A DNA stretch of 64,000 nt from Escherichia coli (GCF_013122565.1 NZ_CP053258.1); one strand, 5' to 3'; positions 2,677 through 51,648 are shown, numbered from the stretch's first letter. The notes: generated by a model from the sequence alone, not told the origin. Numbers and translations: made by a program.

Positions 2677-4179
2677 TTACGCTACGGCTGCTTTCGCCGC
2701 TTTGTCTGCAGCGTCATCCTGCGTCATGCGGTGCAGTTTCGGCGCGGTCAGCAGCATCAGTACTGCAATAACGGCAGTAGCGACACCAATCTGCAAGAAT
2801 ACGCGACCATAGACTTCCAGTGACATCAGCGGATCGGTAACGTTATCCGGCACAGCCATCATACCCGCAACATAACCACCAATCAGGTTTGCACCGGCAG
2901 TGGTCAGGAACCAGCTACCCATAATGAAGCCCATCAGACGCTGCGGAACGAGTTGTGCAACCATTGCCAGACCCAGACCAGAGATCATCAGTTCCCCGAT
3001 GCTCTGCAGGCCATAGCTTGCGACCAGCCAGCTTACAGACACGATACCAGCGTCAGACGCGAATTTCGCACCCAGCGGCAGAATCAGGAACGCACCAGAA
3101 CACATCACCATGCCGATTGCAAACTTGGTTGGCATCGGCAGGGTATCGCCCATCTTGTTATAGATAGCGGCCAGAATCGGACTACCGATGATGATCCAGA
3201 ACGGGTTCAGTGCCTGATACTGCTCAGGTTCTACGGCCAGACCCAGAATGGTGTGTTCAACGTTACGAATCGCAAAGAAGTTCAGTGACGTTGGCATCTG
3301 GCTGTACAGCACGAAGAAGATAATGGCTTCGAGCATCAGGATGAAGGCAACGATCATTTTACGACGCGCAGCACCTTTCATCGCGAAGGCTTCTTTACCG
3401 AAGATCACCACGATACCGAAGGCAACAACGCCCAGCGCCATACGCGCAACTTCCTGATTGTGCAGCAGCCAGGTGGCGATAGCGATCAGTGCCACAACAC
3501 CAATAATGGTCAGCAGCAGGTTACGGTAGTTGATAGGCTCGAAGTCTGGTTTTGAACCGTACTGTTTAACCCAGCGTTGGCAGAAGGCGAAGTTAACGAT
3601 AGTGATCAGCAGGCCTACAACGCTCAACGCAAACGCAACGCTCCAGCCGTATTTCGCAGCCAGCCACGGGGTGGCGATCATAGAGAAGAAAGAGCCGATG
3701 TTGACGGACATGTAGTACATGGTGAATGCACCGTCCAGACGTGGGTCGTTTTTCTCATAGCATGTAGAAAGCAGAGAAGACGGGTTAGCTTTAAACAGGC
3801 CGTTACCGACCGCAATAGCCGCCATACCCATATAAACAATACCGGCGTCGTGACCAGACCAGGCAACCAGAGCATAACCAATCGCCAGCACAATAGCGCC
3901 GAGCATAATTACGCGTTTAGTACCCAGTACCTTGTCACCTAACCAGCCGCCGATAGCGACCAGACCATAAACCAGGGCACTAAAGGAAGAGAAAAGGGTG
4001 ATTGAATCCGCTTCAGACATACCCAGTTGTTTAACCAGGTAAACAGCCATAATTCCTTGTAGGCCGTAATAACCAAAACGTTCCCATAACTCAATCGAGA
4101 AGATGAGATAGAACGCCTTCGGTTGTTTGAAAGCGTTCAAACTGACGCTTTCAGTTGGTTTTTGGTTTGCAGTGGACAC
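2677..4179 (-). CDS. dtpA: proton-dependent di/tripeptide permease (POT family)
   Basis: 500-aa polytopic membrane ORF recognised as DtpA/TppB. Confidence 0.92.
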
Positions 4180-48205: not shown

Positions 48206-49426
48206 GTGGTTGCTGAAAACCAGCCTGGGCACATTGATCAAATAAAGCAGACCAACGCGGGCGCGGTTTATCGCCTGATTGATCAGCTTGGTCCAGTCTC
48301 GCGTATCGATCTTTCCCGTCTGGCGCAGCTGGCTCCTGCCAGTATCACTAAAATTGTCCGTGAGATGCTCGAAGCACACCTGGTGCAAGAGCTGGAAATC
48401 AAAGAAGCGGGGAACCGTGGCCGTCCGGCGGTGGGGCTGGTGGTTGAAACTGAAGCCTGGCACTATCTTTCTCTGCGCATTAGTCGCGGGGAGATTTTCC
48501 TTGCTCTGCGCGATCTGAGCAGCAAACTGGTGGTGGAAGAGTCGCAGGAACTGGCGTTAAAAGATGACTCGCCATTGCTGGATCGTATCATTTCCCATAT
48601 CGATCAGTTTTTTATCCGCCACCAGAAAAAACTTGAGCGTCTAACTTCGATTGCCATAACCCTGCCGGGAATTATTGATACGGAAAATGGCATTGTACAT
48701 CGCATGCCGTTCTACGAGGATGTAAAAGAGATGCCGCTCGGCGAGGCTCTGGAGCAGCATACCGGCGTTCCGGTTTATATTCAGCATGATATCAGCGCAT
48801 GGACGATGGCAGAGGCCTTGTTTGGTGCCTCACGCGGGGCGCGCGATGTGATTCAGGTGGTTATCGATCACAACGTGGGGGCGGGCGTCATTACCGATGG
48901 TCATCTGCTACACGCAGGCAGCAGTAGTCTCGTGGAAATAGGCCACACACAGGTCGACCCGTATGGGAAACGTTGTTATTGCGGGAATCACGGCTGCCTC
49001 GAAACCATCGCCAGTGTGGACAGTATTCTTGAGCTGGCACAGCTGCGTCTCAATCAATCCATGAGCTCGATGTTGCATGGACAACCGTTAACCGTGGACT
49101 CATTGTGTCAGGCGGCATTGCGCGGCGATCTACTGGCAAAAGACATCATTACCGGGGTGGGCGCGCATGTGGGGCGCATTCTTGCCATCATGGTGAATTT
49201 ATTTAACCCACAAAAAATACTGATTGGCTCACCGTTAAGTAAAGCGGCAGATATCCTCTTCCCGGTCATCTCAGACAGCATCCGTCAGCAGGCCCTTCCT
49301 GCGTATAGTCAGCACATTAGCGTTGAGAGTACTCAGTTTTCTAACCAGGGCACGATGGCAGGGGCTGCGCTGGTAAAAGACGCGATGTATAACGGTTCTT
49401 TGTTGATTCGTCTGTTGCAGGGTTAA
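48206..49426 (+). CDS. mlc: ROK-family global repressor Mlc (DgsA)
   Basis: 406-aa ORF with GTG start (MVAENQPGHIDQIKQTNAGAVYRLID...). Confidence 0.93.
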   Translation: MVAENQPGHIDQIKQTNAGAVYRLIDQLGPVSRIDLSRLAQLAPASITKIVREMLEAHLVQELEIKEAGNRGRPAVGLVVETEAWHYLSLRISRGEIFLALRDLSSKLVVEESQELALKDDSPLLDRIISHIDQFFIRHQKKLERLTSIAITLPGIIDTENGIVHRMPFYEDVKEMPLGEALEQHTGVPVYIQHDISAWTMAEALFGASRGARDVIQVVIDHNVGAGVITDGHLLHAGSSSLVEIGHTQVDPYGKRCYCGNHGCLETIASVDSILELAQLRLNQSMSSMLHGQPLTVDSLCQAALRGDLLAKDIITGVGAHVGRILAIMVNLFNPQKILIGSPLSKAADILFPVISDSIRQQALPAYSQHISVESTQFSNQGTMAGAALVKDAMYNGSLLIRLLQG

Positions 49427-49550
49427 CATTTTTTAACTGTTCTACCAAAATTTGCGCTATCTCAATTTGGGCCAGGAAAGCATAACTTAGACTTTCAAGG
49501 TTAATTATTTTCCTGGTTTATATTTGTGAAGCATAACGGTGGAGTTAGTG

Positions 49551-50246
49551 ATGCTGAAGCGTTTCTTTATTACCGGTACAGACACTTCTGTAGGGAAAAC
49601 GGTGGTTTCCCGCGCATTGCTACAAGCGTTAGCCTCCCAGGGAAAAACGGTTGCGGGATATAAACCCGTAGCGAAGGGGAGCAAAGAGACACCCGAAGGG
49701 CTGCGTAATAAAGATGCCCTGGTGTTGCAGAGTGTTTCAACCATCGAACTGCCTTATGAAGCAGTTAATCCTATCGCGTTAAGCGAAGAAGAAAGTAGCG
49801 TGGCGCACAGTTGCCCAATCAATTACACCCTCATTTCAAACGGCCTGGCAAACCTGACCGAAAAAGTCGATCATGTCGTGGTAGAAGGGACTGGCGGCTG
49901 GCGCAGTCTGATGAATGATTTGCGTCCACTCTCTGAATGGGTGGTGCAGGAACAACTGCCGGTGTTGATGGTTGTCGGTATTCAGGAAGGTTGCATTAAC
50001 CATGCACTGCTAACAGCTCAGGCGATTGCCAACGACGGGCTGCCGCTCATTGGCTGGGTGGCTAACCGAATCAACCCAGGACTGGCGCATTATGCGGAAA
50101 TCATTGATGTGCTCGGTAAAAAACTTCCGGCACCGCTCATTGGTGAACTGCCTTATCTGCCGCGCGCCGAACAGCGTGAACTGGGGCAATACATCCGCTT
50201 AGCTATGCTGCGCAGTGTGCTGGCGGTAGATAGAGTCACGGTGTAA
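49551..50246 (+). CDS. ynfK: dethiobiotin synthetase paralogue (BioD-like)
   Basis: 231-aa product from ATG 49551 with P-loop [11 protein letters not shown]. Confidence 0.88.
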
Positions 50247-51455
50247 CGTCCGCGAGATTACCGACGCAATTACGCAGGCAATCAATAAACCGGGGAGTAG
50301 CTGATACTCCCCGGTCATTTCACATATCATCAACGTCGACATAATCGGCGCGTGCGTGGTTGCCGCCAACAGTGTCGCCATCCCGGTCAATCCGAGTAAA
50401 AGCGTAATTTCTTCGCCATCAGGGAACCATAATCCCAGGCTACGACCATACAACATGCCAATGGCAAGACCGATAAATAGCGTCGGTGTAAAGACACCAC
50501 CGGGTGCGCCGGAACCGCTACTCGCCAGCACGGCACACAGTTTACAAAGGAAGATCCCGGCAATGATCATTAACAGTGGCGGGGCGGTTAAAAAGGATTG
50601 TACGGTGCTATAGCCGTTGCCCCACACTGCAGGTGTGAACAGGGAAAGCAGACCCACGATCAACCCGCCTAGTGCCAGTTGCCAGGGCGGCGCAAGTTTG
50701 AGACTCACAAATCCACGATGACAGGCGTTCATTAACGTTAACAACAGTGGTCCGCACAGACCTGCCAGCACACCTGTACTGATAATCAGCGCATAGTCAC
50801 GAGCCTGAACCGTCACTGAGAGTTGTACGCTGTAGAGTAACGCGTCGCTATGATTAATCAGATTGCTAACCAGCAATGCCACGACAGCGGAAATAATCAC
50901 CGGGCCGAGAGAGGCCAACATCATAGTGCCAAACAGCACTTCGGCTATAAATAAACTGCCAGCAAGCGGGGCGCGATAGGCCGCAGCCATTCCCGCCGCA
51001 GCTCCACAGGCGATCCATAATTTCCACTCCTGGCGTGGCGTAAAACGTTGGGTAAAACAGGAGGCGGCAAGGGCAGCTAAAAGAATCATCGCACCTTCGC
51101 GACCAATTGCACTGCCGCTGGTTACTACCAGCAGAGAGGCAAGCGATTTAACCAGGCTTGCTGCGTAATCAAACTGCCCATCGGTTTGCAACGCTTCCAT
51201 ATAATCGGTCGGCGCATGAGGGCGTTGCTGGGTAAATTTCTGCCAGCCCATCAGCAACAAACCCGCCGCCAGTCCGCCGAGCGCCGGAGTTAGCAGCCGT
51301 CGCCACGGGGAAAGATTTGTCGCTGCATTGACCAGACTGCCGGAGTCATTATTGAGGAACAACCACTCCAGTAGCAGCATCGCATGACGAAACCCGGCAA
51401 CGGCAAAGGCCGCGAGAATACCGACGGCTGTTGCGATAAGCAGACGGCGGAACAT
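50199..51455 (-). CDS. clcB: ClC-family voltage-gated chloride channel
   Basis: 418-aa product from ATG 51455; 3' end overlaps the ynfK 3' end by 48 bp. Confidence 0.88.
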
Positions 51456-51648
51456 AGTGCGCAGATCCGGATAGATGTGTAGATGATGCATGAGCAGAAA
51501 TGGGCAATGAAACACGGGCGACTATTTTGCGGCAAAAGAGGCCAGCTGCAAAAGCAGTGCGTGCTTTAAGAGACAAAAAACGTGACACTGTAACGTATTG
51601 TTGCCGAATCGCGCGTAATCGTCACCATCCGGCAATATTACGGTGATC

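Follow-up and report, generated by a model that had tools for sequence, protein, structure and literature searches.

A conserved dual-coding overlap of ynfK and clcB in Escherichia coli and a selected hairpin within clcB that probably takes part in forming the mlc-ynfK 3' end

How is a transcript brought to an end where two convergent genes leave no DNA between them? The question is raised by ynfK and clcB, which face each other in a 64,000-nucleotide stretch of Escherichia coli DNA (GCF_013122565.1, NZ_CP053258.1; the whole stretch is referred to as the window, and positions are counted from its first letter). The ynfK gene (also named bidA, b1593; 49551..50246, + strand) encodes a 231-amino-acid paralogue of BioD, and clcB (50199..51455, − strand) encodes a ClC-type chloride channel or Cl-:H+ antiporter of 418 amino acids. 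An earlier note, made from the sequence, had claimed that the last 16 codons of each gene, stop codons included, share the same 48 bp and that no room for a terminator is left between the genes. The overlap was borne out by the sequence, the open reading frames (ORFs), and the RefSeq annotation of K-12. The claim about the terminator held in one part only: intergenic space is indeed absent, but a signal for 3'-end formation appears to exist in the form of a hairpin encoded inside clcB. The interpretation that we consider probable, though well short of certain, is that a real and ancient dual-coding overlap is accompanied by a hairpin in clcB that acts together with Rho as the 3'-end element of the mlc-ynfK transcript.

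The overlap of ynfK and clcB

Both overlapping ORFs are genuine genes. The ynfK coding sequence (CDS), placed by its ORF, its NCBIfam match, the K-12 annotation, and its orthologues, runs from the ATG at 49551 to the TAA at 50244-50246. YnfK scored 135 bits against the NCBIfam bioD model (TIGR00347; cut-off 83), which marks it as a dethiobiotin synthase of the BioD type, and the BioD match to entry 1a82 of the Protein Data Bank (PDB) has E = 3e-65. The clcB CDS, placed by its ORF, NCBIfam, and the K-12 annotation, runs from the ATG at 51455 to the TAA at 50201-50199; its product scored 863 bits against the NCBIfam model NF002437 (cut-off 425), and the match reaches the last position of the profile. 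An identical overlap is annotated in the RefSeq record of E. coli K-12 MG1655 (clcB, 1665315..1666571, +; bidA (b1593), 1666524..1667219, −), and of 5426 complete E. coli genomes, 5421 carry the ynfK-clcB locus.

The overlap (50199..50246, both strands), which is defined by the sequence, the ORFs, and codon constraints, consists of 15 sense codons plus the stop codon of each gene, with L217–V231 and the stop of YnfK antisense to L404–S418 and the stop of ClcB. The two genes read the same triplets, position 1 of one codon facing position 3 of the other and position 2 facing position 2. Because the triplets are shared, the TAA that ends ynfK is the TTA of ClcB Leu404 and the TAA that ends clcB is the TTA of YnfK Leu217, while the residues V-D-R-V of YnfK (226–229) face D-S-I-Y of ClcB (407–410). 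If both proteins are made at full length, each mRNA would have to contain the antisense of the last 15 codons of the other.

As the overlap is set by two stop codons, its conservation across species is the relevant test against chance. The ynfK locus was therefore compared in 80 species-level Enterobacteriaceae genomes. Wherever clcB appeared intact (65 loci, counting the window), it overlaps ynfK: by 27 bp in 3 loci, 39 bp in 1, 45 bp in 15, 48 bp in 33, and 66 bp in 13, all multiples of 3. Between genera the ClcB stop shifts and the YnfK stop stays, YnfK having 231 amino acids in 79 of the 80 loci. The earlier note had proposed that orthologues in which either protein ends earlier would reveal a mis-set stop. 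Both C-termini proved to be kept, and the overlap persists in every orthologue pair in which neither gene is damaged, so the objection fails.

That one of the stops is an artefact of frameshift, stop loss, annotation, or sequencing, leaving no true overlap, had to be taken seriously at the outset, as 124 of the 178 overlaps longer than 60 bp in a published survey were 3'-end extension artefacts (PMC2478687) and as the ClcB stop does vary between genera, giving overlaps of 27–66 bp. However, both stops are read from the sequence and match the K-12 RefSeq record, YnfK has 231 amino acids in nearly all orthologues, including those of species lacking clcB, and an overlap of 27 bp with ynfK remains in the shortest ClcB variants. 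The overlapped segment of ClcB moreover carries the family-wide SIY motif. An artefact of this kind is scarcely credible.

Constraint from both reading frames can be read off the two C-termini. E. coli BioD (structure 1a82) ends opposite YnfK residue 220 in the sequence alignment, and YnfK consequently has a specific 11-residue tail (codons 50211..50243, + strand) that is not in BioD, delimited by that alignment and by a motif kept in species without clcB. At ynfK, clcB is missing in 12 species, of which 11 keep a 231-amino-acid YnfK ending in [VA]-D-R-[VI]-x-A-stop. The codons of the tail are relaxed without clcB (GTA to GCC or GTT, AGA to CGN, and the stop to TGA). Where clcB is present, Val226 is GTA in 63 of 63 species and Arg228 is AGA or CGA in 60 of 63, choices that are forced because these codons are the complements of ClcB Tyr410 TAC and Ser408 TCT or TCG. 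On the other strand, ClC homologues of 40–50% identity end in '...RRLxxxSIYxx'; the genomic context of three library matches showed that P0128 and P0130 are not beside ynfK and that P0121 (72% identical) is. Since an SIY-type end is common to ClC homologues, residues 401–410 of ClcB are ancestral, and the labile part of the ClcB tail comprises the last eight or so residues only. Both C-termini appear to be functional, YnfK through its 11-residue tail with the D-R motif and ClcB through the helix-R exit motif R-x-L-x-x-D-S-I-Y, and neither has the look of a stop-loss extension. The two tails happen to be antisense-compatible on their shared triplets.

Convergent overlaps make up ~7% of gene overlaps, and only in this orientation were long overlaps considered potentially genuine (Pallejà et al. 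2008, PMC2478687, citing earlier work by Rogozin et al. 2002). Like the convergent overlaps of that survey, ynfK and clcB are genuine opposite-strand genes that share 3' codons and are conserved between species. They differ in that their overlap of 48 bp falls below the scrutinised 60-bp class, that it is conserved family-wide whereas most of the putatively real long overlaps occur only in very close species, and that the constraint from both frames is directly visible. The overlap is thus confirmed as real and dual-coding; it is already in the reference annotation and, taken by itself, ordinary.

Several loci depart from the common arrangement. At L003 (E. coli strain E69), a synonymous change of CTG to CTA at YnfK Leu224 (positions 3670-3672 of the locus) makes a TAG at ClcB Gln412; ClcB then ends in '...DSIYR' and the overlap is 27 bp. 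The same ClcB stop position is found in two Superficieibacter species (L064 and L071), and because these three loci stop early, the last 6–7 residues of ClcB appear dispensable. In a metagenome contig (L082, positions 3761-3796), Arg228 AGA is replaced by TGA, which leaves a YnfK of 227 amino acids, four codons short, and an overlap of 36 bp. Its ClcB is 72% identical, its clcB is preceded by an operon for an OpuA-type ABC transporter and not by dmsD, and the contig retains the hairpin described below, with a G.U pair when it is read as ynfK-sense RNA. By contrast, convergent overlap in its common, short form is seen at L084 (positions 3751-3754), where the gene of a distant ClC homologue (45% identity) and a convergent M28/M20 peptidase gene have 4 bp in common.

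A hairpin under selection inside clcB

A GC-rich stem-loop begins 42 nt downstream of the ynfK stop and spans 50289..50315 on the + strand, with arms at 50289-50299 and 50305-50315 and a loop at 50300-50304. It was identified by its fold, covariation, codon choice, and a recoding null. The 27-nt inverted repeat, ACCGGGGAGTA-gctga-TACTCCCCGGT, gives a stem of 11 bp with 7 GC pairs and a 5-nt loop, with an energy of about −21 kcal/mol on either strand. The clcB strand reads ACC GGG GAG TAT CAG CTA CTC CCC GGT, that is T381-G-E-Y-Q-L-L-P-G389, and these codons belong to the conserved helix-R motif of ClC proteins.

Five independent lines of evidence show that the hairpin structure itself is under selection. 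ClcB Pro388 is CCC in 59 of 59 species, the largest codon-entropy deficit among 230 conserved degenerate columns, while CCC accounts for 24% of the Pro codons in the compared clcB genes. Thr381 is ACC in 59 of 59, the third-largest deficit among the same columns, and Gly382 is GGG in 49, GGA in 9, and GGC in 1 of the 59. Stem pair 49/63 is G-C in 22 of the 65 species, C-G in 35, U-G in 3, and mismatched in 5; the switch couples ClcB Glu GAG and Leu CTC on one side with Gln CAG and Leu CTG on the other, the change being synonymous at Leu. Paired cells amount to 92.6% of the alignment, compared with 19–43% for slid registers, and the covariation score lay above that of 500 of 500 shuffles. The mean fold energy is −17.6 kcal/mol, whereas synonymous recodings of this 13-codon peptide average −8.4 kcal/mol, and a sliding scan over clcB 250–403 and all of ynfK gave z ~ −3.2 at the hairpin window alone, with the others within about ±1.5.

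These data also bear on whether the palindrome is an RNA element at all. It could be a by-product of the peptide T-G-E/Q-Y-x-L-L-P-G, which is part of the conserved helix R and in which the second-position bases of the Gly/Pro and Thr/Gly codons pair automatically, or it could be a DNA operator of a dimeric protein, which would likewise keep its halves symmetric. The peptide, however, does not account for a fold that is ~9 kcal/mol more stable than its synonymous recodings, nor for rare codons (CCC, GGG) fixed against codon usage, and, as the fifth line of evidence, a ClC gene of 50% identity that is not beside ynfK has the peptide motif and no hairpin. Changes in one arm are almost exclusively G.U-compatible, which is the signature of RNA, and the element, once freed from coding, gains a T7–T8 tract of the kind typical of terminators. 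An origin in peptide or operator is accordingly very unlikely. A search of Rfam 15 found no family at its gathering score, the best matches reaching 23–24 bits compared with 55–56 bits (E = 0.5–1).

The spacer between overlap and hairpin (50247-50288, ClcB codons 390–403) has several codons with reduced synonymous variation, with Ser401 TCG in 51 of 59, Ala393 GCC in 43 of 52, and Val396 GTG in 29 of 31, and contains a conserved + strand string, CGYCCGCGAC. The window scan revealed no conserved fold in it.

Rho and the 3' end of ynfK

The gene mlc (dgsA; 48206..49426, + strand; ORF and K-12 annotation) lies upstream of ynfK on the same strand, and mlc,ynfK is a single operon entry in a table of PMC4448311, so that the hairpin would end an mlc-ynfK transcript. 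ynfK is FNR-activated (PMC3688515). For the 3' end of this transcript, data are available from DirectRNA-seq with and without bicyclomycin (BCM; PMC7815308), in which Adams et al. 2021 report a region of Rho termination, classed as 'primary' with respect to ynfK and as antisense with respect to clcB. The Rho score peaks at K-12 1666514 (−; Supplementary file 2), which maps through the K-12 coordinates to 50256 on the + strand of the window, 10 nt past the ynfK stop. The region has a Rho score of 4.2 (p = 1.5e-6), and reads upstream and downstream number 85 and 11 without BCM and 292 and 159 with BCM. These published data show that the ynfK 3' end depends on Rho, and the 85 upstream versus 11 downstream reads indicate that read-through of ynfK into antisense clcB is limited.

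The hairpin resembles a canonical intrinsic terminator in its GC-rich stem of 8–11 bp and its 5-nt loop. Unlike such a terminator, it is followed in species with clcB by a ynfK-sense tail with only 4 U in 8 (UCAUUUCA). An intrinsic terminator would be expected to have ~5 or more U in 8; the tail TCATTTCA falls short of this, and a terminator scan made no call on the + strand. The tail is poor in U because it is fixed by the ClcB codons E-M-T. Only in two loci that lack clcB (L013 and L016) is the stem followed by a full U-tract (T7–T8).

A closer parallel is offered by the Rho-dependent E. coli transcripts that were found to end at stable stem-loops without U-tracts, where the stem-loops shield the RNA from 3'-5' exonucleases and are closely followed by rut sites (Dar & Sorek 2018, PMC6061677). 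The ynfK 3' region shares with these a stable stem without a U-rich tract shortly past the stop codon and read-through that rises when Rho is inhibited (PMC7815308). Past the hairpin, the ynfK-sense RNA is mildly rich in C and poor in G (50320..50480, + strand; C/G ratio in 60-nt windows), and this stretch may be a Rho loading region. The ynfK 3' region differs from the published type in that the hairpin is inside the CDS of a convergent gene and is kept by the codons of that gene, and in that the 3' end at the base of the hairpin is predicted.

A mechanism can be proposed on this basis. With no intergenic DNA available, the 3'-end signal of mlc-ynfK would have been placed inside clcB as a GC-rich stem-loop of 8–11 bp. 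As the coding constraint bars a proper U-tract, the hairpin most likely cooperates with Rho, serving both as a pause site and as an exonuclease-resistant 3' stem-loop, and Rho would release the polymerase slightly beyond it. We infer that the hairpin is the element that forms and protects the 3' end of the mlc-ynfK transcript.

The strand served by the hairpin

Synonymous changes that keep a G.U pair on ynfK-sense RNA occur as Gly GGA in 9 species and as Glu or Gln codons ending in A in 12 species, and arose in several separate genera. By contrast, changes that would keep G.U on clcB-sense RNA only (Thr ACT, Pro CCT) occur in 0 of 65 species. Excess stability is likewise present in every species on the ynfK-sense strand, where at most 23 of 300 recodings are as stable, and is lost in three species (L025, L053, and L058) on the clcB-sense strand.

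The evidence from loci in which clcB has decayed appears the most telling as to strand. In four loci (L011, L021, L049, and L052; positions ~3650-3960), clcB is a dead 3' stub of 55–110 codons with stops or deletions, and these stubs keep both the overlap with ynfK and an intact stem; they adjoin dmsD or other genes directly. Five loci without clcB carry a lineage-matched stem directly after ynfK. The two Citrobacter amalonaticus loci have the Glu type: in L016 the arms are CCGGGGAGC/GCTCCCCGG and a T7 run comes next, and in L013 the stem is shorter (GGGGAG/CTCCCC) and precedes a T8 run. The Gln type (CCGGGCAGC/CTGCCCGG) occurs in Lelliottia (L073) and Trabulsiella (L045 and L075). At least two other loci without clcB (L039 and L043) have unrelated canonical terminators after ynfK. 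Since the hairpin outlives clcB, or an unrelated terminator is present, ynfK seems to need a 3' stem-loop, and the comparative data point to ynfK-sense RNA as the strand on which the hairpin acts.

A number of observations weigh against the hairpin as a Rho-assisted element of the ynfK transcript. A simple terminator scan calls it on the − strand and not on the + strand, and the U-rich tail is better on the clcB-sense side in E. coli (UUUAUUGAUUG). Pairing is nearly equal on the two strands (~92.7% ynfK-sense, 90.8% clcB-sense), and in 31 of 65 species the pair next to the loop is C.A on ynfK-sense RNA, where clcB-sense RNA would have G.U. The strand argument is drawn from four synonymous sites in phylogenetically related species. 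The Rho coordinate, 50256, is upstream of the hairpin, although it is coarse, being derived from 800-nt windows, and the C/G ratio of 1.1–1.9 over 50320-50480 amounts to a modest, unspecific enrichment. Neither ynfK nor clcB has an entry in the Term-seq tables of PMC7815308, the locus appearing in the Rho table only; this may reflect low aerobic expression of the FNR-activated ynfK. The Term-seq supplements of TERMITe likewise contain no entry for clcB, ynfK, bidA, or b1593.

Some of these observations would fit a hairpin that serves clcB, as an intragenic intrinsic terminator, an attenuator, or a translational pause in the clcB mRNA. Untranslated clcB transcripts would then end ~90 nt short of the stop codon, and the polymerase would not enter ynfK. 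The − strand call comprises 12 pairs and the tail TATTGATTGC, the mean energy on the − strand (−17.7 kcal/mol) is as low as that on the +, the loop-proximal pair is G.U-compatible on the − strand in the same 31 of 65 species, and ClcB Leu390 is TTA or TTG in 50 of 59 species, which yields a U-rich clcB-sense tail. This tail is not conserved, however (L010, for example, has GGG CTG CTG ATC), and termination at this site would produce non-stop clcB mRNAs. A function in clcB is further at odds with the persistence of the stem where clcB is a dead stub or gone, with the three species that lost excess stability on the − strand and not on the +, and with the wobble codons, those of the − strand (ACT, CCT) being never used while those of the + strand are. 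We regard it as distinctly unlikely. The Leu390 skew was also considered as decisive evidence for a clcB-sense U-tract and was rejected, as other Leu columns (Leu356) are similar and the tract is not conserved.

The hairpin could instead be bidirectional, terminating transcription on both strands or positioning head-on collisions of polymerases. The fold is stable on both strands in most species, and on the + strand it is flanked by A-rich sequence on the 5' side and by a weak, U-containing stretch on the 3' side. Where clcB is absent in L016 and L073, the hairpin stands between ynfK and a convergent ABC-ATPase gene, the classical site for such an element. Collision-driven termination of convergent pairs needs a stem-loop in the nascent RNA (Wang et al. 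2022, bioRxiv 10.1101/2022.10.23.513370), and, as in the pairs of that study, ynfK and clcB converge and share a single stem-loop able to fold on either strand. The published elements are found between gene boundaries, whereas the ynfK hairpin is 90 nt inside the clcB ORF wherever clcB is present, and action on clcB would there truncate its mRNA. Its conservation is strand-asymmetric as well, the wobble pattern and the three species that lost the fold on the − strand only both favouring one strand. A bidirectional role is therefore a minor possibility, and action on the ynfK-sense RNA remains our preferred interpretation.

No reciprocal hairpin for the 3' end of clcB was found inside ynfK, where 13-codon windows gave |z| < 1.5 on both strands, and YnfK codons 150–216 contain no island of synonymous constraint. 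Transcription of clcB presumably continues into ynfK in the antisense direction and is eventually halted by Rho or by colliding polymerases. Such read-through is plausible. That clcB is terminated by Rho or by collisions is a conjecture, the latter being informed by the collision model for convergent pairs (10.1101/2022.10.23.513370).

Other features of the locus

For both genes, the start codons found mechanically differ from those annotated. The mechanical ynfK ORF begins with a GTG at 49539, upstream of the annotated ATG at 49551, and that of clcB begins with a GTG at 51515, giving 438 amino acids versus 418 from the ATG at 51455. For the 418-residue form, the NCBIfam ClcB profile starts at position 12, and some relatives are annotated with 431 amino acids, so that the start of clcB might merit checking. 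Over the region, the promoter and terminator scans gave totals no higher than expected from shuffled sequence.

A weak genomic-SELEX peak of HusR (YnfL) within ynfK, with an intensity of 72 and without a consensus box, has been reported at the old coordinate 1,664,668 (PMC12844172, 2026), which converts approximately to ~50125 in the window, ~75 nt upstream of the overlap. In a lineage of Shigella sonnei, ynfK was convergently pseudogenised on 8 occasions, with 5 nonsynonymous and 0 synonymous single-nucleotide polymorphisms (SNPs; PMC6811581). Protein matches to YnfK include truncated variants of 213–227 amino acids, and any frameshift close to the 3' end of ynfK would hit ClcB too. As to the origin of the gene name bidA, a literature search combining it with biotin gave unrelated matches only.

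Implications

Overlap and hairpin together could form a device of regulatory coupling, in which FNR-induced ynfK tunes down ClcB, the reverse also being possible. If this were true, ClcB would be lowered anaerobically through the 48-nt mRNA duplex and through polymerase collisions positioned by the hairpin, and an antisense RNA structure would dictate codons, even the choice of Glu or Gln at residue 383 beside the chloride-coordinating tyrosine. Regulation of the excludon type involves an obligatory antisense overlap of two mRNAs with unrelated functions. The ynfK and clcB mRNAs are obligatorily antisense in the same manner, but the stretch that must overlap spans no more than 48 nt, and read-through is restricted by Rho. 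We hold this coupling to be unlikely.

The literature that we searched yielded no paper describing the embedded hairpin. An embedded, covarying 3' hairpin combined with three-layer coding is a modest new observation of a known kind. One stretch of DNA would here carry three layers, namely two antisense C-termini on the same triplets and an RNA 3'-end hairpin in the opposing codons, the hairpin being maintained through the choice of rare codons and through an amino-acid replacement tied to a synonymous change. Genes without intergenic space can, in this manner, still gain a 3'-end signal, and the need of ynfK for this hairpin would explain why dead 3' stubs of clcB persist beside it. Synonymous sites in clcB codons 381–389 and 404–418 should not be treated as neutral, and recoding or deleting the 3' end of clcB, or codon-optimising the gene, may disturb the expression of mlc-ynfK.

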